Below, in pieces: positions 17,250 to 30,779 of a stretch of 64,000 nucleotides of DNA; position 1 is the stretch's first letter; each line of letters opens with the position of its first letter. The translations under genes were made by a program, and so were the position numbers. Below the pieces are notes generated by a model, which saw only the letters and a program-made list of their open reading frames with translations, did not search any database and was not told where the DNA came from. Source of the stretch: Candidatus Hydrogenedentota bacterium (GTDB taxonomy: Bacteria > Hydrogenedentota > Hydrogenedentia > Hydrogenedentales > SLHB01); contig BTWA01000009.1 in the NCBI GenBank assembly GCA_045863295.1, positions 64,001 to 128,000 on the forward strand, written 5' to 3'.

Positions 17250-17493
17250 TTGAATCGTCGTAACACCTGTTTTGACGCCGAGCTACCCGAAACGGTTTAC
17301 AGGATAATACGGAAGGAATCCACCGAACGGCAAGCGGGACGTGGGTGTGTCTTTTAGAATCGGTATGGACGTACATATGCCACGACGGACGCCGCCACGG
17401 CGAATTTGACTGGTTGTGATTATCTTGTTTTGGGCTGACGCCAGAACGCATCATGGTTCGGGCACGATTCATTCAACGAGAGGGCGAGCCGAC

Positions 17494-20214
17494 ATGCGGG
17501 CATCCATTTGGGCGTACGTTGCATTCAGTATCGTTTCCGTGACCTGCTTTGCCGAAGTGAAGCATCCTGTCAACCGTATCCAGTTTGAGGGGCCGATGCG
17601 GGACCGGGTGGAGGCCGTTGTGTCTGAATGGGCGTTGCCCGCACCGGAGGCGAATCCGGGGATGCTGGAGATGTTTCGTTTACGGGACCGGCAGCCGGAT
17701 TACGAAGATCCGGTTCCTTGGGCGGGCGAATTCGCTGGCAAGTACTTGCAGTCGTGTGTGCTGTTGCGGCGGATGTCTGCCAACCCGGAATTGGAAGGGC
17801 ACACGCGCCGATTTGTGCATGACCTAATCGCGACGCAGGCGGACGACGGCTATTTGGGGCCATTTCGCAAAGAAGAACGGTTGCTTGGCCATTGGGATTT
17901 GTGGGGCCACTACCATGTGATGCTTGGTTTGTACATGTGGTATGCCGAGACTGGCGATCGGGCCGCGCTGGATTGCGCAACGCGCGCGGCGGACCTTGTG
18001 TGTGCGACTTACCTTGATGGGGACAAGACCGTGCATGACGCGGGGTCGCATGAAATGAACATGGCGATCATTCACGTCATGGGCCTGCTTTACCGAGAGA
18101 CCGAGAACCCGCGTTACTTGAAGCTGATGCGGCAGGTTGAGTTGGATTGGGAAAAGGCGCCGGCGGGCGACTATTTGCGGACAGCGCTTGATGGCAAGGA
18201 GTTTTTCGAGACCCCCAAGCCGCGGTGGGAGAGTCTACATCCCATGCAGGGGCTCACGGAGTTTTACCGCATCACCGGAGATGAGAAGTACAAGCAGGCG
18301 CTGATGCATCATTGGCACAGCATCCACCGTTGGGACATACACAACGCGGGCAGTTTCTCGACCAATGAGGGGGCGGTTGGCAATCCGTTCAAGCCGGGAT
18401 CGATCGAGACCTGCTGCACGGTGGCGTGGATCGCGTATAGCATTGACGCGTTGGCGCTGTCCCGCGACAGCCTTGTGGCGGACGCGATAGAACGGTCGAC
18501 TTGGAATGCGGTGCTGGGTTACTTGCACCCCAGCGGACGCTGGTGCACGTACGACACGCCGATGGACGGGAAGCGGCTGGCCAGCGCGCATTCGATTGTA
18601 TTTCAGTCAAGACCGGGGACGCCGGAATTGAATTGTTGTTCCGTGAATGGACCGCGGGGATTGGGTTTGATTGCGGAGTGGGCTGTAACGGACGACGAGG
18701 GCGGAATTTATGTCAACTACTACGGCCCGTGCCGCATTGATGCGACGTTGACGAACGGGGAACACTGGGGCATTGAAGAGTCAACCGCGTATCCGAATGA
18801 GGGTGAAATTCGAATAGCGTTCACGCCCTCCGGGACTATCGAGCGCACGATTCATTTTCGCATTCCCTCGTGGAGCCGGAGGACATCGATCCGGGTGGAC
18901 AATGAAGCGCCCGCAGACGCCATACCCGGTACCTATCATGCTATTCGAAGAACTTGGCAGCCAGGGGACACCGTGACATTGGACGTGGATTTGAGTGTCT
19001 GGTCTATTCGCGGTGATTCCTACGTCGATCACAAGTCATCGGTTTTTCGGGGACCGATCTTGTTGACCTACGATCAGAAGTTCAACGCCGTGGAGCCGGG
19101 CATGTTGCCTGAACTCGATCTGCTGAATCTGTCGTTGGAGCCGGAAGCGGTTGTGACGCAGTTTAGCCCGATTGCAGCCTACAGGGCGGCATCGGGAAGT
19201 ACAACGCTTACGCTGGTGGACTACGCGTCGGCAGGGGCCAGCGGTACGGCGTACCGTTCATGGATGCCGGCGAGAAATGGCGAACCATCGCCATTCAGAC
19301 TTCTGCGACCCACGGGCAATTTACCGGTACGTTCGGACCGGCCGCTACTGCTCACATGGATGCCGAGCGTACCCGGATCATTGTACGAAGTGACGCTGGG
19401 CGAAGGTCCTGACCGTTCGCAATCGTTGAAGACGTGGACGGATGTGGACCAGCCGTATGTCATTTTGGATAGCGGCTTGGAAGCCGGCAAGACGTACTAT
19501 TGGCAGGTGGCGGCCAAGACCGAGGGGCGGGAGGTGGCAGCCTTGAATGGTCCCAAGGCGTTCGATGTTGTTGCACCGGATGCAAGCGTGGGGACGGGCG
19601 AAGTGTTGATTCACGCATCGCTACACGGCACGGCGGATCCGGCCACGGGTGTGCTTCGCGAGGCGGCGGCCGTGGTTCCGGCCATGGGGTATCGGGGCGA
19701 GGAGGGAACGGGGCTCGCGTTTGATGGCAAGACCAGCAAGGTTGTTTACCGGGTGGACGATTTCCCCGTGCTTGATTACACGTTATCCATCTTGGTGAAG
19801 CCCCAGGGGCCGCAACAGAAAGGGCAGCAGTGGTATCAGATATGTTCGGCATGGAAGAAGGGTATGGACGACCCGCTTCGCATCTCACTGGTAGACGGCC
19901 GTGTGGTCGCGCAGATGGAAATGGCCAAAGGCGGCGCGCGGATTGATGGTCCCGCGATCCCTGATCATGCGTGGACACGCGTGACTTTGGTCAAGGACCG
20001 GAGTGAATTGCGGCTTTATATCAATGGGCAGTTTTTCGGGCAGACTGTTGTGCCGGAGTTGTTGGACACCGAGGCGGATTCACTGGGTATTGGCTGCAAT
20101 CCCAACTTTGGGCAATTGGAGGGGCTTTCGGCGGTGTTTTCTAATTTGGTTTTTGAAAGCGTGGCCCGTTCAGACGCGGAGATTCTCACGGCGTACACGC
20201 AGACGGCCAAATGA
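17494..20214 (+). CDS. Secreted GH127-family (beta-L-arabinofuranosidase-like) glycoside hydrolase with FN3-like and LamG-like C-terminal domains
   Basis: Signal peptide after ATG 17494; GEFAGKY, QADDGYLG, IETCCT, NCCSVNG and FRIPSW, then YYWQV (FN3-like) and WTRVTLVK..LRLYING (LamG-like). Confidence 0.85.
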   Translation: MRASIWAYVAFSIVSVTCFAEVKHPVNRIQFEGPMRDRVEAVVSEWALPAPEANPGMLEMFRLRDRQPDYEDPVPWAGEFAGKYLQSCVLLRRMSANPELEGHTRRFVHDLIATQADDGYLGPFRKEERLLGHWDLWGHYHVMLGLYMWYAETGDRAALDCATRAADLVCATYLDGDKTVHDAGSHEMNMAIIHVMGLLYRETENPRYLKLMRQVELDWEKAPAGDYLRTALDGKEFFETPKPRWESLHPMQGLTEFYRITGDEKYKQALMHHWHSIHRWDIHNAGSFSTNEGAVGNPFKPGSIETCCTVAWIAYSIDALALSRDSLVADAIERSTWNAVLGYLHPSGRWCTYDTPMDGKRLASAHSIVFQSRPGTPELNCCSVNGPRGLGLIAEWAVTDDEGGIYVNYYGPCRIDATLTNGEHWGIEESTAYPNEGEIRIAFTPSGTIERTIHFRIPSWSRRTSIRVDNEAPADAIPGTYHAIRRTWQPGDTVTLDVDLSVWSIRGDSYVDHKSSVFRGPILLTYDQKFNAVEPGMLPELDLLNLSLEPEAVVTQFSPIAAYRAASGSTTLTLVDYASAGASGTAYRSWMPARNGEPSPFRLLRPTGNLPVRSDRPLLLTWMPSVPGSLYEVTLGEGPDRSQSLKTWTDVDQPYVILDSGLEAGKTYYWQVAAKTEGREVAALNGPKAFDVVAPDASVGTGEVLIHASLHGTADPATGVLREAAAVVPAMGYRGEEGTGLAFDGKTSKVVYRVDDFPVLDYTLSILVKPQGPQQKGQQWYQICSAWKKGMDDPLRISLVDGRVVAQMEMAKGGARIDGPAIPDHAWTRVTLVKDRSELRLYINGQFFGQTVVPELLDTEADSLGIGCNPNFGQLEGLSAVFSNLVFESVARSDAEILTAYTQTAK

Positions 20215-20276: not shown

Positions 20277-22115
20277 TTAGTGTTGCTGGTGGGTCGGTTC
20301 CCAGTGTTCGGGAGCGCGCCAGAGTTGTGACAGCATCAATTGCCGCATGAACACGAATTCTTTTGGCAGTCGATCGTAGACGCGCATGAACAATTCTTCA
20401 TGGGAAAGGATTTCCGCCTGCCATGCATCGCGATCGACCGACATGACCTCGGTGAAATCATCCTCTGAGAATTCGATTCCGGTCCAATCGATGTCTTCAT
20501 AGCGAGGCATCCAGCCTAGCGGGCTTTCCTCGGCGTAGGCTTTTCCTCGCACACGGTCGACCACCCATTTCAGGATGCGCATATTCTCTCCGAATCCGGG
20601 CCACGCGAAGTTGCCGTCCTTGTTCTTACGGAACCAGTTCACGCCGAAGATGCGCGGGGGATTGTTGATGACTCGGCCCATATCCAACCAGTGGCTCCAG
20701 TAATCGCCCATGTGGTATCCGATGAACGGGAGCATGGCAAATGGATCGCGGCGGACTTTGCCGACCGCGCCGACTGCCGCGGCGGTAGTTTCCGACCCCA
20801 TGGCGGCCGCCAAATAGACCCCGTAGTTCCAGTTGTAGGCTTGCATGACCAGCGGCACGGTTGTGCTGCGGCGGCCGCCGAATATGAATGCACTCACGGG
20901 CACGCCTTCGGGGTTTTCGAATTCCGAATCCACGCAGGGGCAGTTTTTCACGGGGGCGGTGAAGCGGGCATTCGGGTGCGAGGACTTGCCCTCGCTTTTG
21001 GGTGTCCATTCCTGGCCGCGCCAATCGGTCAGCTTGGCGGGCGGTTCCGGTGTCATGCCTTCCCACCAGACATCGCCTTCTGGGGTGAGGGCGACATTGG
21101 TGAAGATGCAATCGCGCTTGATGCTTTCCATGGCGTTGGGGTTGGATTCATAGGATGTTCCAGGGGCTACGCCAAAGAAACCGCATTCCGGATTGATGGC
21201 GTACAGGCGTCCGCCCGGTCCGGGTTTTATCCACGCGATATCGTCGCCGATGGTTGTAATTTTGTACCCGTCAAATGCGGGCGGGGGAATAATCATGGCG
21301 AAGTTGGTTTTGCCGCACGCGCTCGGAAATGACGCGGCGACATAGGTTTTTTCTTTGTCGGGGGTTTCCACGCCGAGGATGAGCATGTGTTCGGCGAGCC
21401 AGCCTTCGTCGCGCGCCATGCAGGATGCGATACGTAGGGCGAAACATTTCTTGCCGAGCAATGCGTTGCCGCCGTATCCGCTTCCATACGACCAGATTTC
21501 CCGTGTGTCCGGGAAATGAGTGATGTACTTTTCCTTATTATTGCAGGGCCAGGCGACGTCTTTTTGCCCGGGCGCCAGGGGCATCCCCACGGAATGGATG
21601 CAATGGACGAATTCGCCGTCTTCTCCGAGGGTATCCAATACCTTTTTGCCGACGCGCGTCATGATGTGCATGTTGACGACGACATACGGCGAATCGGTCA
21701 ATTCCACGCCGATATGCGCGATGGACGACCCGATGGGCCCCATGCTGAACGGAATGACATACATGGGCCGGCCCTTCATGCAGCCCTTGAACAGGCGCTT
21801 GAGGGTTTTCTTCATGTCTTTGGGGTCGACCCAGTTATTGGTGGGGCCGGCGTCTTGCTTGCGGCGGCTGCAAATAAACGTCCGGTCTTCCACACGGGCG
21901 ACATCCTGGGGGTCGGAGCGAAAGAGGAAGCTGTTGGGACGCAACTTTTCATTGAGTTTGATGGCCATCCCCGACGTGACCATTTCCCCCATTAACTGGT
22001 CGTATTCGGCCTTGGAGCCGTCACACCACACGACCTTTTCGGGCTGGCACAGGGTTTCCATGTCGGCAACCCACTTTTTAAGTTTTTCGTGATTTACGCT
22101 ACCTACAATGCCCAT
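20277..22115 (-). CDS. pckG: Phosphoenolpyruvate carboxykinase (GTP)
   Basis: [50 protein letters not shown] and [13 protein letters not shown] 22115 follows AGGAAGG. Confidence 0.97.
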
Positions 22116-22482
22116 TGAAAACGTTCCTTCCTGGGGCCGCCTTTCTGGGGGTTGCAGCCTTTTCCGCCTGGGAATAAGGGGGTCATCATGCTTCATTGGG
22201 GGGCAGCTTGAGATAGCCGCGCATTCGCGACTGGGATCATAGTCGATTTGGGACTTGGCTATCAATTCGAGGGGTGAAACCGATGGTATTTGTTGCCTGG
22301 ATCGCACAATGTGTTTTCGGGGAAGGCGGCGTGGATAGAGTTCCAGTATGAGAAAACTGCGAGACACGAAGTTTCGTTACCGCGGTATAGATATTGGCCG
22401 ACGCGACGACTTGATTGCGTTGGCGGAACAGTTTGGCCCATAATCAGGTTTTCATGGGGCCGGGATACGACCATTCGAAATT

Positions 22483-22512
22483 GTTGACAAATGGCTGTCA
22501 ACGGCTTAGTCT
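22483..22512 (+). promoter_or_regulatory. sigma70 promoter with overlapping palindromic operator, upstream of the small-gene array
   Basis: TTGACA (22484-89)-N17-TAGTCT (22507-12). The -35 box forms the left arm of GTTGACA-N6-TGTCAAC. Confidence 0.6.
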
Positions 22513-22526
22513 ATGGCGGAGGAAAC

Positions 22527-22727
22527 GTGGGGTACGAGTCAGGAGTGAACTTACCATCGGGGATCCGGCGTCACTTCAGGAACCTTTCACGGCCCAGGGC
22601 CGTGGCGGTTACGGTTGCGACGCCTGCGGAAATTCAGTTCACCAAGGCCCAGTGGGCGGTCCTCAATGCCTTGTTGTCTTTGGAACAGTCCAAGACCGAT
22701 AAAGTGAATGAGCAAGCCGGTTCATGA
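22527..22727 (+). CDS. Small protein 1 (66 aa) of the tandem leader-motif family
   Basis: GTG 22527 after GGAGG, downstream of the predicted promoter. Contains RHFRNLSRPRAVA, a divergent form of the motif in the next two genes. Confidence 0.55.
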   Translation: MGYESGVNLPSGIRRHFRNLSRPRAVAVTVATPAEIQFTKAQWAVLNALLSLEQSKTDKVNEQAGS

Positions 22728-22819
22728 CCGTGCCGGCCAGTTTGCCGATGCCGCCGGAACGATTCCGCGGAGTCAGGATCGGCGGTCACGTGCTGCCGTA
22801 AGGAGGAGACGGAGGTAAC

Positions 22820-23080
22820 ATGAAGCATCACCGACTGATAACGCGGAAGCCCGTGCAGGGTCAGACTGCGCTTGCCGTGAAATTGGATTTCAAGGTAGGT
22901 TTGAGCGACCTTGCATTTCTCGCTACAGGGTTTGTGGCAAATTTCCTTATTGAGTTTTACGACATCATCGGTGGGTTCCCGACGAACGGGTCTGGCGGCA
23001 CCGGCGGTGACACGGGAGGCGATGGCGGTACCGGTGGCGACACCGGCGGCGACACCGGCGGTGATACGGGTAATGAATAA
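22820..23080 (+). CDS. Small protein 2 (86 aa): leader motif, hydrophobic helix, DIIGG, Gly/Asp/Thr repeat tail
   Basis: GGAGGT RBS; MKHHRLITRKPVQGQTALAVKLD; clear paralogy with 23131-23367. Confidence 0.85.
   Translation: MKHHRLITRKPVQGQTALAVKLDFKVGLSDLAFLATGFVANFLIEFYDIIGGFPTNGSGGTGGDTGGDGGTGGDTGGDTGGDTGNE
22994..23072 (+). repeat. Coding tandem repeat, (GGDT/GGT/GGD)n
   Basis: Degenerate 9-12-nt units such as GGCGGCGACACC, encoding GGTGGDTGGDGGTGGDTGGDTGGDTG. Confidence 0.85.
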
Positions 23081-23130
23081 CGCAGCCCAGTGATCAGCAA
23101 GTTGGCGATTGTACAGCAGGAGACACTGAA

Positions 23131-23367
23131 ATGAAGGCGAGCATGAACCATTGTCGGGCCATTACAAAGTCGCCATCCACGGCTCAAACGGCCTTGGCGC
23201 TAAAGCTCGATGCTTATTTGGCCATTATAACCAATATGTTTACCTCGGGCTTGATCCTTTGGGAAGCAAGCACGGGCGGTTGGTGGGCCGCGTGGCTTGA
23301 CATTATCGGCGGTGAAAACGTCGATGTCGTGTTTGGTCAGAACAACCAAGACACCACGACGGAATAG
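23131..23367 (+). CDS. Small protein 3 (78 aa): leader motif, hydrophobic Trp-rich helix, DIIGG, acidic tail
   Basis: AGGAG RBS (alternative ATG at 23143); MNHCRAITKSPSTAQTALALKLD is 14/23 identical to protein 2. Confidence 0.85.
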   Translation: MKASMNHCRAITKSPSTAQTALALKLDAYLAIITNMFTSGLILWEASTGGWWAAWLDIIGGENVDVVFGQNNQDTTTE

Positions 23368-23401
23368 ACATCCGCGAAGCCGGTCGTTATCCAGTCATTT
23401 T

Positions 23402-23436
23402 GGGCGAACGCATGGACAATGCGTTCGCCCTTTTTT
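23402..23436 (+). terminator. Rho-independent terminator closing the small-gene array
   Basis: Perfect 12-bp stem GGGCGAACGCAT-ggaca-ATGCGTTCGCCC followed by TTTTTT. Confidence 0.9.
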
Positions 23437-23631: not shown

Positions 23632-25017
23632 CTAATCGCCTGCTTCGCTGGGCGCGTCCAGGCCCAGTTGGTCCATTTTATATTTCAGGATCCGGCGGGT
23701 GGTGTGGAGTATTTCGGCGGCCTTGGATTGCACATAGTCGGATTTTTCCAGCGCCCTTTGAATGAGAAACCGTTCCAAGCGCTGCGTAGCTTCATCCAAG
23801 GATAGCCCCTCAAATTCAGCGAGGGATCCTTCCACCGGCCCTTCGGAAGATTCGGTGGGTGTCAGTATGCCCTGCAGGTTTGTTTTTCTAATTTCCTTTT
23901 CGTGCGGATTCAGTACCAGAATTCGCTCGACCATGTTTTCCAATTCGCGGATGTTTCCGGGCCAGTCATACCCAGTCATCACGGCCATGGCATCGGGTGC
24001 AAACCGATCCACGGTGCTGTTGACGCGGGTGCGGTGTTTGGCGATGAAGAAGGAGACGAGACCGGGGATATCTTCGCGGCGTTTGCGCAGCGGCGGCAAT
24101 TCTATGTGCAGCACGTTGATGCGGTAATACAGGTCTTCGCGAAATGTTCCGGCCTTCACGCAACTCTTCAGTTCGCGGTTTGTGGCGCAGATAAAGCGCA
24201 CGTCGACTTCGATTACCTTTGAGCTGCCCACGGGGTAGATGTGGCCGTTTTGCAGCACGCGCAATAGTTTGGCCTGGGCTTCCAACGGCATTTCGCCAAT
24301 TTCGTCGAGGAAAAGACTTCCGCCATCCGCTACTTGCACCTTGCCCATGCGCTTTTCGATCGCGCCGGTGAAGGCGCCTTTTTCGTGGCCGAACAATTCG
24401 GCTTCGACCAACTGGTCTGGAATCGCACAGCAGGATACGGGCACAAACGCTTTTTGCGAGCGGGGTCCGCCGGAATGAATGGCACGCGCCAGCAGGTCCT
24501 TGCCAGTGCCGCTTTCACCGGTGATCAAAACAGTGCTATCGACTTCCATGGCGCGTTTGGCCATGGCCAATGTCTGCCTTAATGCAACGCTCTCACCGAC
24601 GATGGACTCGAAGCCCGCGGAGCCGGCCTCGCGCAGCACGGTCAATTCCCGGTCGCGCATGTAGTCCGACAAGGTCTTGTCGATGGTGTGTATGAGTTCT
24701 TCGACGTCGAACGGTTTGATGATGTACTCGCGCGCTCCTCGCTTCATGGCTTCGACGGCGTCTGCGACAGATTTGAGAGCGGTGACCACCGCGACCGGGG
24801 GCATCACGCCGCGCCGTTGCATTTCGTCGAGCACTTGAAATCCGCTCATGCCGGCCATCATGAGATCGAGGAGCATCAGATCGACGTGGTTATCCTCAAG
24901 AATCTTAAGTGCCTTGGGACCATCTTCCGCGAGGAGGACCCGGTACTGATCCTGAAGGATCATCCGGTACGATTCCCGGATGCTGAGCTCGTCGTCAACC
25001 GCCAGTATGGTTTTCAT
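23632..25017 (-). CDS. sigma54-dependent response regulator (REC-AAA+-Fis HTH; NtrC/AtoC/PrsR-like)
   Basis: ILAVDDE...LLDLMM, GESGTGKD, GAFTGA, FLDEIGE, FREDLYYR, WPGNIRELEN and a C-terminal HTH. Start 25017 overlaps the upstream gene by 23 nt. Confidence 0.95.
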   Translation of the reverse strand: MKTILAVDDELSIRESYRMILQDQYRVLLAEDGPKALKILEDNHVDLMLLDLMMAGMSGFQVLDEMQRRGVMPPVAVVTALKSVADAVEAMKRGAREYIIKPFDVEELIHTIDKTLSDYMRDRELTVLREAGSAGFESIVGESVALRQTLAMAKRAMEVDSTVLITGESGTGKDLLARAIHSGGPRSQKAFVPVSCCAIPDQLVEAELFGHEKGAFTGAIEKRMGKVQVADGGSLFLDEIGEMPLEAQAKLLRVLQNGHIYPVGSSKVIEVDVRFICATNRELKSCVKAGTFREDLYYRINVLHIELPPLRKRREDIPGLVSFFIAKHRTRVNSTVDRFAPDAMAVMTGYDWPGNIRELENMVERILVLNPHEKEIRKTNLQGILTPTESSEGPVEGSLAEFEGLSLDEATQRLERFLIQRALEKSDYVQSKAAEILHTTRRILKYKMDQLGLDAPSEAGD

Positions 25018-26980
25018 GAACGCCTCGTACGAGCGGTTCCGCGGTTTTTGCAGCGGCCGTAGGGGGGATAGCATCGGACTTTGCGCTTGAGACCAGCGGT
25101 ACCGAGAGGCGGAACCGGCACCCCTGCGGGCCGGGGATATACTCCAGCGTTCCGCCATGCATCACGGCCGTCCGTCGCGCCAGTGTGAGGCCCAGTCCCA
25201 TTCCTTTTTCGCGCGTGCTGAAGAAAGGCAGGAATATCAACGGCACGAATTGTTCCGGGACGCCGGGGCCCGAATCGGTGACGGTGATCTCGATGCGGTT
25301 GTTGGACTCGCCGGAGGCGACCGTGATTACACCGCCTTCGGGCATGGCCTCAATCGCATTTTTTACCAGGTTGTGTATGGCTTGGGCAACGTACACGGGA
25401 TCCATTTCCGCCGGCGTGATGGATGGATCCAGTTGTCGATTCAAACGGATTCCTGCAGCGCCCAGCTTTTCGCGGAACGAGTCCAGCACAGTATTTATGG
25501 TGTCGTTTATGTGCACGCGTTGCAGCGCCATTTTGGGTTGGCGGGCAAAATCAAACAGACTTTCCACCACGCGGTTGATGCGCGCGACTTCTCCCATGAC
25601 TGTTTCGCAGAATTGATCGCGGAAGTCTTGCGATTCATATTTTTTGGGCAACAGTTGCGCAAAGGTATTGATGGCCACGAGGGGATTCTTGATTTCCTGC
25701 GCTACACGTGCGGAAAGGAACTCCCAGAACGGGCTGGTTTCCAGGTCGTCCTGGGCAGTCCGCTCGTCCATGGCGGGTATGGGCGCCATGAGCACGACGG
25801 CTCCGTCGCCTTCCAAGACGGAAACGCTAACGCCCAAGATAGTATTTGTAGCTCTGTCGCGGACGGTATGACGTAGAACCGGTCTGTTTTCTCGGAGTGC
25901 CTGCAAGACGACGTGAGCGAGTTCCGAGCCGAGCCGTTGCACGCTTCGGCCTATATGATCGTTTGCGGATACCTGCAGGAATTTTTCCGCGCTGGCATTC
26001 ATCATCGAGATGGTGTTGTCCGCTCGCACAAAAATCACGCCGCTGGTCAGGCGAGCAATGGCGGTATCCAACTGTGTTTGTTTTTCGGCCACCGCGTCGT
26101 AGGTTTGGGCATTGTCCAGAGCGATGGACGCGCAGCGTGCGAACGAGGTCAGCAGGTCACGTTCTTCCTGGCTATAGGCGCGTCCGGTCGCTTTTTCGCC
26201 TATCAGGATAGCGCCGACGACACGGCCGGCGCGCAGCAGAGGCACGCCAAACCGCGCCCCCAAAAGCCGCATGTGTTTGGCGGCAGGCGCCTGAGCAGGC
26301 AAGAGATTGCGATCGATCAGGCATGGGTTCTCTTCAAAGCACCGCATGAGCCCCGCGGCGAACCCGAGCCGAAGCGAATCGGTCAGCGCGGGTGAAAGAC
26401 CGACACCCACCGCGACTCGTGCTTCGCCGCCCTGTTCCAGCAGAATTGCCGTGCGAACCGGGTCGAAGATATCTGAGACGGCATCCTGTAGCGTTTGCAG
26501 CAATCGTTGCGGGTCTTGCAACATGCCGGCGGCGCGACCGAGCCAGCGCAACGCCGTTTGATGCTGGGACAAGTGCGCCGCAGGGGTAATGTCCGCAGGC
26601 GCTGGCGGCGCAATTATTTCGACAGTGCGTTCCAACGGCCTTGCGCGATCCATTGCGGCATGCAGATCGGCGCAATTGAACGGTTTGGGCAACGCTGCCG
26701 AGGCCCCAGCGAGAAGATAGGACGCGAGCGTTTCGGAGTCGCTGTAGTTGGACAAGACGATGACCGGCGTGTCGGGCGAGACACCGCGCAATTGGCGCAA
26801 GGCGTCACGCCCCTGGGTGCGCCAATCGTCGAGTATGACTACGTCGGCATTGACGGCGATCATTCGACGGATAGCCTGTTCGACATTGGGTTCAAAGAGC
26901 GCGACAGATGCATCCGGCAGTGCGGCTGCCAGGGATTCGCGCAAGGCTTTGTCTTCCGCAACGATGAGTACCAGATTCAT
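24995..26980 (-). CDS. REC-GAF-PAS-HisKA-HATPase protein lacking the phosphoacceptor His (pseudokinase)
   Basis: H-box reads RVAQEIKNPL. N/G1/F/G2 boxes are intact (NLVKNA, DSGPGV, PFFST, GMGLGL). ATGA overlap with the upstream kinase. Confidence 0.88.
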   Translation of the reverse strand: MNLVLIVAEDKALRESLAAALPDASVALFEPNVEQAIRRMIAVNADVVILDDWRTQGRDALRQLRGVSPDTPVIVLSNYSDSETLASYLLAGASAALPKPFNCADLHAAMDRARPLERTVEIIAPPAPADITPAAHLSQHQTALRWLGRAAGMLQDPQRLLQTLQDAVSDIFDPVRTAILLEQGGEARVAVGVGLSPALTDSLRLGFAAGLMRCFEENPCLIDRNLLPAQAPAAKHMRLLGARFGVPLLRAGRVVGAILIGEKATGRAYSQEERDLLTSFARCASIALDNAQTYDAVAEKQTQLDTAIARLTSGVIFVRADNTISMMNASAEKFLQVSANDHIGRSVQRLGSELAHVVLQALRENRPVLRHTVRDRATNTILGVSVSVLEGDGAVVLMAPIPAMDERTAQDDLETSPFWEFLSARVAQEIKNPLVAINTFAQLLPKKYESQDFRDQFCETVMGEVARINRVVESLFDFARQPKMALQRVHINDTINTVLDSFREKLGAAGIRLNRQLDPSITPAEMDPVYVAQAIHNLVKNAIEAMPEGGVITVASGESNNRIEITVTDSGPGVPEQFVPLIFLPFFSTREKGMGLGLTLARRTAVMHGGTLEYIPGPQGCRFRLSVPLVSSAKSDAIPPTAAAKTAEPLVRGVHENHTGG

Positions 26981-29532
26981 GGCTGGCTACTCACGGAAGC
27001 GTTTGCGTTGTTGGGGTCCCATCCTTGCCGCATTTTGGGTGGTGGATCGAGAGGGAGGAGGATAACGAACGAGGCACCTCCCGACGGGTTATTTTCCACG
27101 TAAATTTGTCCGGCGTGTTCGCTGATGATTCCGTGCACGACGGATAGGCCGAGGCCGCTGCCCCGGTCCTTTGTGGTGAAGAACGGAGTGAAAATGCGAT
27201 CCAGGGCGTCGGGGGCGATCCCCGTGCCGGTGTCGGACACAGTGACTTTGACGCACTCTCGAACCGGCTTTGGCCCGTGGCCGTTGCTGCTGTAGAGAGA
27301 CGCCTGGTCGCGTGCAGCGGTAATGGTCAAAGTTCCCCTTCCGTGGTCCTTCATGGCATCGATGGCGTTGAGTACTAAATTCAAGAAAACCTGATGCAAC
27401 TGCTGTTCATCGCCGTAAATGCATGTGCAATCCGTGGCCAGCTTGGTTTCGACGCCAATGATGCCTTTACGGATCTGATTCTCCAGCAGAATGAGGACCT
27501 CCTCGATGATAGCATGAAGATTCTGAGGCGCAAAATTCGCAGGCTTGGGCCTCGCGAAGTGGAGCAGGCGCGTGACGATGGAATCGATTCTCTCCACTTC
27601 GGTTGGAACCACATCGCTGAACGTGTTTCGAAAATCGGGATCGTTGTAACGGTCCATGAGAAGTTGTGCGAAGGTCTTGATGGATACGAGTGGGTTTTTG
27701 ATTTCATGCGCCATGCCGGCGGCGAGCGTGCCAATAGAGGAGAGCCGGTGGGCGCGCTGCATGCTTTGTTCCAGGCGTTTCAAATGCGTGAGGTCGTATA
27801 ACAACGCCATCGCGCCCGTGACTTCCTCGTCCACGGTAGTGAGACACGAGGAGGACATGGCCACGGAAATGCGGTCGCCGTTGGGCCCGGTGATGACGGT
27901 TTCATAGTCGTGAACACTTTGTCGCGTAGTGAGGGTTTGTCTTATGACACTGGCCACTTCGGGCGTAAGCACATCGACGTGTGCGCCGATCTTAATCGGA
28001 CCGAGCAATTCGACGGCGCCTTGATTTACCGTAGTGACTTCGCCGCTGGTGTTTACGGCGACGACGCCGCCGCGCATGTTACTGAGGATGCGGGCGCGAT
28101 GCAGGTTGGCTTCCTCTAGCGCGCGGTAGAGGCGTGCATTTTCGATGGCCGCGGCCAGAGGCCCCGCGAGTGCCTGAAATGCCAGGACGTCTTCCGCTGT
28201 AAAGATGTCCTTTGACGTTTTTTGACTGAGGGTCATAATACCCACCAGCGTTGATTTTTGAATTAGCGGCACCGCCATGTAGGCGTCCAACTCCGCGAGG
28301 AGTTCGGCGATTCGCACGCGGTCGGCGGAGGGTTTTCCGTGAATCAATTGTTCCAGCACGAGGGGGGTCGGGTTTAGGTGCAGGTAGTCGAGCAGCATGC
28401 CGAACTGGTGGAGGCGTCCACCCATTTCGCGCCTATCGCTCGAGTACTCAGTAATCAGGATATCCTTGTCCTTGGGATCGACCAAATGGATTCGGATGGT
28501 CTTCACGCCGAGGGTCTGTTGGATGTTCGTGCAGACGGATTCCATGAGTTCGTCAATCTGCACAGTTTGCGAAGCCTTTTCGCTGACGCGTGCGAGCAAT
28601 TGCTGGGCGTCGTAGTGACGCTTGAGAATCACGCGTTTGGCGATCAGTTGCAGGCGTTCCTTCAGGGGTTCCAGAAAGACGGCGATCACGATGGCGGCGA
28701 GCAGGGCGGTGATGATATCGGCGTCGCCGCGGGCGATGCTCAATCCATAATGGGCCAACACAAACGCGCCCACGAAGATAAGTACGACAAACCCCGTGGT
28801 GACCGTGTATACCGCGGTGGCGGACAGGATTACCCACACGTCCATCAAGTGGTACCGGATCATGGCGTAGGCGAAGATGGCCATGGTGGGCAGCACGAAA
28901 ACAGGTCCATAGGGTTCGAAGAAGCGGATTCCGAGGAATACCAAAAGCATGTTCGTAATGAAACCGAGGATGGCGACGACAAACACGCCCAGGATTACGT
29001 GTTGAATCTGGCGGCGTTGAATGCCGGACGAAACCCGCAGTTTCCGGAACAGGTTGATGTAGATCAGAATTAGCGCCAGTACGCCCAGCGGAAAGAATCC
29101 GAAATTGAAGACCGGTCCGTACACCACGTTGGGATAGCCCGTGGATTTTGCCTCGACGGTGACAAAATAGTAGGGATCGGGCAGGAAGCAAAGTACAATG
29201 AGGGCCAGCCCCACGACGTAAAAGAAGATGACGGCGGAGCGCGAGCCTTGGAACCGTCCTGTGGGGGAGTAGCAAACAAAGTTATAAAACGTGCCGGGGA
29301 ACAGACACGCAATAATGAATGTGGATCGCATCCAGAAGCGCGCATCTTCGACGTTGGTGCAATGGATAATGGCGAAAACGCCGAGGACCCACAACATCAG
29401 ATTCGTGGACAGGGCAGCGAATGCGATGTGATTGACACGGCGGTGGTTGTGGCCAAGGACGATTGCCGTGAGCGCAAGGCAAGACAGGGCGGAGAGGATT
29501 TGGAAAAATCCTGTGACGTCAATCCACCACAT
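26977..29532 (-). CDS. Membrane sensor histidine kinase (HisKA_7TM-like multi-TM, GAF, PAS, HisKA, HATPase)
   Basis: About 9 N-terminal TM segments; GAF ending AIENARLY; GMAHEIKNPL; NLVLNA, DTGTGI, PFFTTK and GSGLGL. ATG overlaps the ketosynthase stop (TGATG). Confidence 0.93.
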   Translation of the reverse strand: MWWIDVTGFFQILSALSCLALTAIVLGHNHRRVNHIAFAALSTNLMLWVLGVFAIIHCTNVEDARFWMRSTFIIACLFPGTFYNFVCYSPTGRFQGSRSAVIFFYVVGLALIVLCFLPDPYYFVTVEAKSTGYPNVVYGPVFNFGFFPLGVLALILIYINLFRKLRVSSGIQRRQIQHVILGVFVVAILGFITNMLLVFLGIRFFEPYGPVFVLPTMAIFAYAMIRYHLMDVWVILSATAVYTVTTGFVVLIFVGAFVLAHYGLSIARGDADIITALLAAIVIAVFLEPLKERLQLIAKRVILKRHYDAQQLLARVSEKASQTVQIDELMESVCTNIQQTLGVKTIRIHLVDPKDKDILITEYSSDRREMGGRLHQFGMLLDYLHLNPTPLVLEQLIHGKPSADRVRIAELLAELDAYMAVPLIQKSTLVGIMTLSQKTSKDIFTAEDVLAFQALAGPLAAAIENARLYRALEEANLHRARILSNMRGGVVAVNTSGEVTTVNQGAVELLGPIKIGAHVDVLTPEVASVIRQTLTTRQSVHDYETVITGPNGDRISVAMSSSCLTTVDEEVTGAMALLYDLTHLKRLEQSMQRAHRLSSIGTLAAGMAHEIKNPLVSIKTFAQLLMDRYNDPDFRNTFSDVVPTEVERIDSIVTRLLHFARPKPANFAPQNLHAIIEEVLILLENQIRKGIIGVETKLATDCTCIYGDEQQLHQVFLNLVLNAIDAMKDHGRGTLTITAARDQASLYSSNGHGPKPVRECVKVTVSDTGTGIAPDALDRIFTPFFTTKDRGSGLGLSVVHGIISEHAGQIYVENNPSGGASFVILLPLDPPPKMRQGWDPNNANASVSSQP

Positions 29533-30779
29533 CAATTACATTTCCTGAGCACCAAAGCGCCGTGCGTGCCTCCGAAGCTCATGGCCGTTACGATGGCTGT
29601 CCGCACGTCATTATAGCGCGCCTTTTTGGGAACGTAGTCGAGGTCGCACTCAGGGTCGGGATCCTGGAGGTTGATGTTGGGCGCGACGATACCTTCCTGA
29701 ATGGCCAGCAGGGCGGCGCCTATGCTGTAGAGGCCCCCCGCGGAATAGGGCTGTCCGGTCATGGACTTTGTGGCCGAGAGGGGGATCCGGTAGGCCTGTT
29801 TTGCCAGCGCTTTTTTGTAGGCGGCGGTTTCGGATCGATCGTACATGGGCAGGGAGACCCCGTGGCAAAAGGCGGCATCGATGTCTTCCGGCGATGTGCC
29901 GGCATCTTGAATGGCCGTGCTCATGGCGCGTGCCAGGGCCGCGCCTTCCCGTTCCAGGGTTAGCAAGTTGTTCGCCTCGGCGGAGGAGCCGTATCCGCCC
30001 ACTTCGGCCAGGATGGTGGCGCCTCGTTCCCTGGCGTGTCCGAGCCTTTCCAATACCAGGGCGGCCGAGCCTTCGCTCAAGACGATGCCATCGCTGTTTC
30101 GATCGAAAGGCCGCATTGCCTTTTCGGGAGCGTCGTTCATTTTGGAGAGGATGCCCAGTGCGCAGGAAGCGGCAATGGTCAGTTCTGTTAGCGGCGCTTC
30201 GGTAGCGCCGACGACCGCCATGTCGGCACGTCCGGAGCGGATTTGGGCAACGCCCCATGAGACTACATCGAGCCCAGTGGAACAACCGCTGGCCAACGTC
30301 ACCGCAGGTCCTCGCAGGCCGTGCGTGACACTGATGTATGCTGTTGCGCCGTGGCCTGACGATGCAGACGTAGTGAGTTTGTCCAGATTGGTCCAACCGC
30401 CGGTTTCATAGGATGTTCGATGGCGCAGATAGTGTTCGTCTGGTGAGCCCACGCTGGTTCCGAAGGCCGTGGCCATGCGTTCGGGATCGTACGTGCCGGG
30501 TACATATGAGGAATCGTCCAATGCCAGGCGGGCCGAGCCGGCGGCCAAGTGGACGTGGCGATACCACCGCCGGACATCGGCTTTTTTCATGAATTCAGAA
30601 GGGTCGTAATCGCGGACTTCCCCCGCAATTTTGCATGGAAAAGGGGTTGGATCGAAACGTTCGATACGGCGCACGCCCGAGCGTCCTTCGCGCAACGAAG
30701 ACCAAAAGGCCTTTCGCCCGACACCGTTGCAGGCGACAATCCCGAACCCTGTGACTACTATTGGTTCTCTGATTATCAT
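29532..30779 (-). CDS. Beta-ketoacyl-ACP synthase II (FabF/KS-alpha)-like protein with atypical active site
   Basis: IVVTGFG, LRGP, SGCSTGLD (Cys), RPFD..SDG.VLSEG, CHG, KSMTGQ (canonical KSMTGH) and SFGG. Confidence 0.88.
   Translation of the reverse strand: MIIREPIVVTGFGIVACNGVGRKAFWSSLREGRSGVRRIERFDPTPFPCKIAGEVRDYDPSEFMKKADVRRWYRHVHLAAGSARLALDDSSYVPGTYDPERMATAFGTSVGSPDEHYLRHRTSYETGGWTNLDKLTTSASSGHGATAYISVTHGLRGPAVTLASGCSTGLDVVSWGVAQIRSGRADMAVVGATEAPLTELTIAASCALGILSKMNDAPEKAMRPFDRNSDGIVLSEGSAALVLERLGHARERGATILAEVGGYGSSAEANNLLTLEREGAALARAMSTAIQDAGTSPEDIDAAFCHGVSLPMYDRSETAAYKKALAKQAYRIPLSATKSMTGQPYSAGGLYSIGAALLAIQEGIVAPNINLQDPDPECDLDYVPKKARYNDVRTAIVTAMSFGGTHGALVLRKCN

Follow-up and report, generated by a model that had tools for sequence, protein, structure and literature searches.

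Small leader peptides of a Hydrogenedentota gene array as probable precursors of a SCIFF-derived maturation system

Within a stretch of 64,000 nucleotides from a Candidatus Hydrogenedentota bacterium (the window) three small frames on the + strand are flanked by the gene of a GTP-type PEP carboxykinase, which is divergent, and by a convergent gene for a sigma-54 response regulator. The encoded peptides share an N-terminal leader, which raises the question of what they are made for and by which machinery they are handled. A preliminary description had proposed a self-contained array of exported or processed peptides. We found that the array is self-contained with respect to transcription, whereas the candidate machinery is located on another contig. 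Table 1 lists the features.

Table 1. Coordinates of the array, the adjoining PEP carboxykinase gene and the candidate operon (window positions unless a contig is named)
Feature	Position	Strand	Details
GTP-type PEP carboxykinase gene	20277..22367	-	Pfam PEPCK_GTP; true start probably downstream of longest-frame start
Probable sigma-70-type promoter	22484..22512	+	-35 TTGACA 22484-22489, 17 nt spacer, weak -10 TAGTCT 22507-22512
ORF1, variable third leader peptide	22527..22727	+	66 aa from GTG 22527, or 60 aa from GTG 22545
ORF2 ribosome-binding site GGAGGT	22811..22816	+	sequence
ORF2, S1 of the conserved pair, 86 aa	22820..23080	+	leader ~1-14, helix 17-51, Gly/Thr/Asp tail
ORF3 ribosome-binding site AGGAG	23118..23122	+	sequence
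ORF3, S2 of the conserved pair, 78 aa	23131..23367	+	leader, proximal K-L-D, hydrophobic core, acidic tail
Intrinsic terminator	23402..23436	+	perfect 12-pair stem + T-run
Main operon	G000:C30:36365-43614 (L025:12366-19615)	-	leader peptides through RRE-SPASM-GNAT fusion

The array and its conserved peptide pair

The terminator had been described as perfect and this was confirmed: the stem and T-run reached z = -6.1 and none of 200 shuffles folded as well. The two spacers of the array folded no better than shuffles. The promoter had been called near-consensus, which holds for the -35 hexamer, a perfect TTGACA; the -10 element TAGTCT matches at three of six positions and the automated promoter scan of the window did not call the array promoter. 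TTGAC was present upstream in 38 of 66 homologous arrays. We also observed that TTGACA is followed after 6 nt by its reverse complement TGTCAA (22484-22501), which places one -35 hexamer on each strand; the two may belong to a divergent pckG promoter or form an operator. In a wastewater metatranscriptome we detected a 240-nt contig identical to positions 22899-23138, the sole record among 27 in its run at 99% or above. As this is a single study and a DNA origin is possible, the contig supports transcription of the array weakly. Among the matches listed for a second run (X1, probably DNA) there was no piece of the array.

Each of the tandem frames had been credited with a ribosome-binding site. 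This is correct for ORF2 and ORF3, whose sites (GGAGG and AGGAG, respectively) are well spaced; ORF3 has a second ATG at 23143. The start of ORF1 is uncertain. Its leader motif begins at codon 22569 with no ATG in frame beside it, the candidate ATG at 22491 lies inside the promoter, for GTG 22527 the ribosome site falls approximately at the expected transcription start, and GTG 22545 overlaps the best AGGAG. ORF1 has lysines near its C-terminus, and a search of 134 other genomes returned no clear ortholog and two marginal matches, both within long frames. For ORF2 and ORF3 we recomputed the identity over the first 23 aligned residues and obtained the 14 identical positions reported before. ORF2 contains no cysteine and ORF3 a single one, in the leader. 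The AlphaFold model of ORF2 (mean pLDDT 70) predicts an unstructured leader, one helix and a disordered tail.

Homologs turned out to be widespread among relatives. A profile of 25 homologs matched in 120 of the 135 Hydrogenedentota genomes at E up to 0.05, and in the protein library the same profile found 223 representatives. Among the best 150 of these 149 were at most 123 aa long, and the sole long sequence was a frog mucin. We compared 75 array loci, which were taken from the best matches and are not a random sample. With the filter used, 59 loci encoded two peptides, 7 encoded three and 9 only one. The last two peptides of the array form a fixed pair, S1 (ORF2) followed by S2 (ORF3), with a median spacer of 24 nt, and the homology between S1 and S2 extends past the leader (hhalign 93.7%). 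As anticipated, the pair is conserved and under purifying selection with a dN/dS of ~0.15 (within genera 0.16 for S1 and 0.14 for S2, from 96 pairs each that are not independent and have dS near saturation). The absence of a named family was also borne out: ORF1, ORF2 and ORF3 had no match in Pfam or NCBIfam, ORF3 had none in the ESM Atlas, and for the family peptides Pfam, NCBIfam, the PDB and the ESM Atlas gave no match.

Across the 132 pair peptides, Q follows the leader in 100 cases and is a plausible new N-terminus, and 123 of the cores are free of cysteine. Where the helix starts, a lysine is kept in 60 of 66 S1 and 61 of 66 S2 peptides, ORF2 (K-L-D-F) and ORF3 among them. A distal lysine is present in 73 of the 74 peptides from the operon described below, in 60 of 66 S2 peptides (as [WYFV]-K) and in 37 of 66 S1 peptides; it is absent from both ORF2 and ORF3.

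The leader and the candidate machinery

From 108 pattern-matched ORFs, three of which were later discarded as noise, we obtained the leader consensus M-[KR]-H-[ILV]-[RK]-x-[IVL]-[ST], often followed by P-x-x-A. A matrix of 14 positions trained on 216 peptides of other genomes gave 32.2 bits for ORF2, 29.9 for ORF3 and 20.0 for ORF1. The genome does hold further motif-bearing paralogs, as the earlier reading required: nine small ORFs in all scored at least 14 bits. In the reversed genome no ORF of 25-110 aa reached this score, although one 23-aa ORF scored 21.2. Looser leader patterns yielded about 14 candidates on 8 contigs. These matrix and profile matches agree with the earlier reading of a conserved, lineage-specific N-terminal leader on paralogous small helical peptides with a RiPP-like logic. 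A general export tag had been suggested as well. However, the leader is on no long protein, as no long ORF of the genome reached 14 bits; together with the short lengths of the best library matches, this led us to discard the leader as a tag of large exported proteins.

Single leader peptides with unrelated cores and neighbours are scattered over this genome (L016:7391-7543, L017:5918-6034, L019:6167-6286, L019:18944-19138, L021:925-1077 and 1280-1447, L022:6722-6913 and G000:C10:94684-94836). The short, lysine-rich and non-hydrophobic peptide at L017:5918-6034 resembles a metagenome peptide (L244:189-323), and this likeness in sequence suggests another conserved subfamily that does not resemble an exported helix. 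Elsewhere in the genome, a 1191-aa frame at G000:C27:42642-46217 has an N-terminus that may be Cas9-like.

The family leader resembles the SCIFF/CteA leader. A metagenome scan was conducted with a ribosome site followed by MKHI[KR]x[ILMF][ST], a query drawn from the family consensus with the SCIFF likeness already in mind. It returned at least 117 stretches, and at least 87 of them encode six-cysteine SCIFF-like precursors (at least 49 distinct, many on gut contigs); all four that were tested pass TIGR03973. The other matches listed were mostly N-termini of long proteins, and a few were cysteine-free peptides. The window leaders, which have H or C at position 4 compared to I in SCIFF, do not match this query. 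On the 14-position family matrix the SCIFF leaders scored a median of 11 bits, because they are without the P-x-x-A-Q part. The M-K-H-x-[RK]-x-[IVL]-[ST] segment looks like an RRE-docking leader of the SCIFF/CteA type. The CteA leader is described as binding CteB as a beta-strand that extends the RRE sheet (PMC6231123, PMC8326336). Metagenome peptides that carry the family leader on non-SCIFF cores, one cysteine-free and helical and one cysteine-rich, were also observed (L177:852-1010, L199:1511-1669, L249:3-323), hinting at a reuse of the leader in other lineages.

The operon on contig C30 encodes three leader peptides, three GNAT-fold proteins, an intramembrane protease of the CPBP/Rce1 type, an ABC ATPase, a membrane protein and a 642-aa fusion protein. 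A peptidase and a transporter beside paralogs had been looked for, and the CPBP protease and the ABC ATPase are both there. The membrane protein had no Pfam match and is presumed to be a permease, by its position only. No lanthionine synthetase was found among the operon genes. One operon peptide shares its Gly/Asp/Thr tail type with ORF2, and the operon cores show a weak likeness to the S1 and S2 cores (hhalign 0.1-19%). We examined 45 operon loci and found synteny in most, with two free GNATs in most relatives and a third in 5 loci.

For the 642-aa protein the sole sequence match in the PDB was CteB, aligned over the RRE and in the SPASM region. Its model (pLDDT 85) gave CteB as the first fold match, followed by the GNATs SpeG/RimL. 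The protein is a CteB-like RRE-barrel-SPASM-GNAT fusion without the radical-SAM cluster motif: in the 38 maturase loci, 4 of which are duplicates, CxxxCxxC was never found and the second SPASM cysteine set was found in every case. Against TIGR03974 the C30 maturase scored 71 bits, where the cut-off is 425. The invariant acids D29, E62 and E66 of the RRE align with acids of ScfB RREs beside true SCIFF genes. In the CPBP protease E134/E135/R139, H175 and H213 are invariant over 33 rows and the catalytic motifs are intact. The nearest solved relatives of the operon GNATs are the SpeG spermidine (amine) acetyltransferases. We detected the canonical CoA loop R/Q-x-x-G-x-G/A in none of 32 rows for GNAT3 and in 2 of 32 for GNAT1, so these proteins may transfer no acyl group or take it from a different donor. 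A regex count of this loop in the fused GNAT (17/34) was discarded, as it had matched a different strand in the rows shown. A separate observation concerns genome G032, in which an intact radical-SAM/SPASM gene with CxxxCxxC precedes a gene for a 428-aa protein with many Cys-x-Ser-Asp repeats (L068:7990-10765), a candidate for a separate poly-thioether system.

Linking the array to the operon

The array loci, of 1.6-5.5 kb each, contained no operon gene. We compared the occurrence of the two loci across genomes. The RRE was found in 122 of the 135 genomes of the phylum. The pair profile and the RRE were both present in 117 and both missing in 10, with 3 genomes having the pair only and 5 the RRE only. 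On closer inspection three of the eight discordant genomes proved to carry both (G032 through the C-terminal part of the maturase, G070 and G041 through leader peptides), and the remaining five are 60-91% complete. Nine of the ten double-negative genomes belong to one family. In six of the double-negative genomes we inspected the site next to the Ser/Thr kinase gene that often faces the array. The ends of pckA and the kinase gene are separated by 8, 24 and 40 nt in G072, G074 and G080, respectively, and in G073 an ABC-F gene overlaps the kinase stop, leaving no room for the pair between the flanking genes in four of the six. The gap is filled by a TMEM175-family gene in G037 and spans 361 nt with an ambiguous short frame in G076. 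A search for GNAT3 and CPBP orthologs found none in the four operon-less genomes queried and strong matches in the sister G071, and the all-peptide profile had no match in three of three. Operon-bearing sister genomes retain the pair. In a kinase tree of 58 genomes the six operon-less genomes formed one clade (support 99/91), so the joint loss of the two unlinked loci counts as a single event: telling, yet only one.

Based on 7-mer counts we saw no operator shared between the upstream regions of array and operon, just sigma-70-like elements. A complex prediction for the RRE (95 aa) with residues 1-45 of ORF2 scored 0.04 and 0.03, with the controls not folded, and counts neither for nor against docking.

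We conclude that ORF1-3 are probably precursors of a phylum-wide maturation system derived from SCIFF and are handled in trans; with a SCIFF-like docking leader, processing of the array peptides by the distant operon is probable. We infer the binding, acylation, cleavage and export steps as follows. The leader would, very likely, dock as a beta-strand on the RRE of the C30 protein. The radical-dead protein might then serve as a scaffold presenting the helical core to the GNATs, which would acylate an amine, likeliest a conserved lysine, a step whose chances we put a little short of even. If acylation targets the distal lysine, the pair of this genome escapes, as ORF2 and ORF3 are without it. 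On balance, the CPBP protease would cut the leader near the P-x-x-[AGS]-Q junction and the ABC system would export or insert the core. For the products we lean slightly towards a housekeeping job in the envelope or in signalling, possibly of S1 and S2 together, rather than a use as weapons. A wider reading is conceivable, if doubtful. In it the SCIFF leader and RRE would have become a genome-wide address tag for a route dedicated to the maturation and export of small proteins. The radical-dead scaffold, the non-canonical GNAT folds, the CPBP protease and the ABC system would act on no fewer than four orthologous helical microproteins encoded at two unlinked loci, and on some lineage-specific extras, which would end up as a conserved set of signals or as a conserved structure of the envelope or surface.

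The array and the operon could also be linked in trans with no tailoring involved. The radical-dead protein and the degenerate GNATs would then be a chaperone or targeting complex that does no more than deliver amphipathic peptides to the protease and the exporter, and the leader would be the address tag of a route for secreting small proteins. The radical cluster is gone, the CoA loop is missing in nearly all free GNAT rows, the cores vary widely and the window pair has no distal lysine; the degenerate loops and the absent lysine in particular leave room for such a non-catalytic role. We consider it unlikely all the same, as GNAT3 is highly conserved (36 invariant columns over 32 rows, in keeping with an active site and equally with an interface), the cores retain lysines at set positions, and lysine-acylating GNATs are known in RiPPs (PMC8784127).

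A further explanation keeps the processing and changes the function, the pair then being a bacteriocin of two peptides for which the operon provides export. Bacteriocin loci can contain CPBP proteases and ABC exporters, and two co-transcribed amphipathic helical peptides with a median spacer of 24 nt would suit this role. However, the pair is near-universal in the phylum, evolves slowly, occupies a fixed position and has acidic cores (net charge -8 for ORF2 and -6 for ORF3), which argues for a housekeeping role, and there is no immunity-like gene at the array. We thus regard a weapon as improbable. A similar argument has been made for SCIFF, whose breadth was used against an antimicrobial role and which a review places under quorum sensing (PMC8326336).

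The pair may also be independent of the operon, having an ancestral leader and its own cytoplasmic or membrane role, e.g. by regulating the Ser/Thr kinase or PEP carboxykinase encoded next to it, or by being a substrate of one of them. The kinase gene faces the array in 45 of the 75 loci and a PEP carboxykinase gene adjoins and precedes it in 32, the S2 tails are rich in Thr/Ser, the co-loss of operon and pair is one event, and the pair cores are distinct from the operon cores. We nonetheless give this explanation only a slim chance. Both the kinase and the PEP carboxykinase remain where the pair is gone, the kinase ortholog of this genome is on contig C45 without adjoining peptides, the upstream neighbour is interchangeable (pckA in 23 loci, an ABC-F-like gene in 22 and pckG in 9), and the leader is conserved in both peptides. 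The PEP carboxykinase is a positional neighbour and not thought to be part of the peptide system.

Several characteristics of the neighbourhood were observed in their own right. Between pckA and pckG we see an apparent in-place swap of PEP carboxykinase isoforms (window 20277-22367; L003, L012, L254, L262), and the gene upstream of the array is divergent in the window alone. The kinase is a soluble single-domain Hanks-type Ser/Thr kinase (L002:2032-2862, L105:1498-2340), found order-wide with 57-66% identity in the genomes searched; it usually faces the array and stays where the array was lost. Window positions 23632-29535 encode the sigma-54 response regulator and two GAF/PAS histidine kinases (one 7TM, one with a receiver) in a PrsK/PrsR-like layout that scores below those NCBIfam cut-offs. 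As partners of the peptides these genes were dropped, as they neighbour only 1 of 75 arrays. At 17416-20214 lies a GH127 beta-L-arabinofuranosidase-like gene with a C-terminal laminin-G domain.

The class III prepilin site considered in the preliminary description, or export as Sec-type subunits, would fit a basic leader ending in G/A before a predicted helix but is highly improbable, as the next residue is Q or T (Q in 100 of 132 pair peptides), Glu+5 is absent, the leader is without a hydrophobic core, a 19-residue stretch above 1.6 on the Kyte-Doolittle scale occurs in just 11 of 132 pair peptides, and none of 105 members matched a pilin family in Pfam.

If the array peptides are indeed precursors processed in trans, a radical-SAM peptide pathway has dropped its radical chemistry and kept the leader-docking module, and the resulting system probably serves precursors spread across the chromosome in a whole uncultured phylum. 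The satellite pair would enlarge the set of substrates, and the empty site provides an evolutionary test of the in-trans link. Natural pair variants that have no distal lysine offer a way to tell acylation and export apart. Every part is small and expressible in a laboratory host, so the chemistry is directly testable, and a tolerant kit for leader-guided acylation and export would aid peptide engineering. Should the address-tag reading be true, Hydrogenedentota would have a RiPP-like secretion pathway with housekeeping duties, and its chemistry would be a novel one.

Comparison with known systems

Our literature search, with subscription papers mostly outside its scope, found no description of the Hydrogenedentota system. 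A term search of an RRE survey from 2025 (PMC12710340, main text) gave no match for the phylum, GNAT or SCIFF; RRE/SPASM mining tables could list the maturase. What is new here is another phylum-wide locus, along with the evidence that the empty sites give in favour of in-trans processing.

The closest relatives are the SCIFF ranthipeptides (TIGR03973; ScfB/CteB TIGR03974; PDB 5WGG). They have the same leader M-K-H-x-[KR]-x-[IL]-[ST], the N-terminal RRE, the barrel and the SPASM region of the partner are homologs of CteB, and the spread is likewise lineage-wide and housekeeping-like. In contrast to SCIFF, the cores here are without the six cysteines, the partner has lost CxxxCxxC and the first auxiliary-cluster cysteines and has gained a GNAT domain, and the precursors are numerous and mostly encoded at a distance from the enzyme. 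Over the own genome TIGR03973 gave only sub-threshold noise, as it did in 9 of 14 control genomes. Judged by these sequences, the system descends from SCIFF and falls outside SCIFF on both core and enzyme.

The selidamides (PMC8784127) resemble the system described here in their GNAT-fold maturases and in the constant positions of lysines in the core. They are reported with NHLP or Nif11 leaders and lanthionine synthetases, whereas we observed a SCIFF-type leader and no lanthionine enzyme, and an NHLP or Nif11 leader had no Pfam match among 105 peptides at E up to 1. Furthermore the GNATs here are SpeG/RimL-like and accompanied by a CPBP protease, and the acylation is only presumed. The array peptides appear to be neither selidamides nor pilins. 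The prochlorosins (PMC10783134) are alike in combining one maturase with many genome-scattered precursors that have a conserved leader and variable cores. Leader, enzyme and chemistry differ, and the prochlorosins are described as hypervariable, whereas the satellite pair is conserved across the phylum under purifying selection. The TMcins (PMC13712780) are hydrophobic helical RiPPs whose leader is removed by an intramembrane metalloprotease, a step that would have its counterpart here. However, the TMcin protease is of the S2P clan (PF11667) and the one here is a CPBP protease; TMcins are disulfide-bonded bacteriocins described without RRE or GNAT, and most cores here are not transmembrane-like. 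Among these systems, the one described here appears to work like an RRE-dependent RiPP with scattered precursors, with its RRE partner encoded in the same genome.
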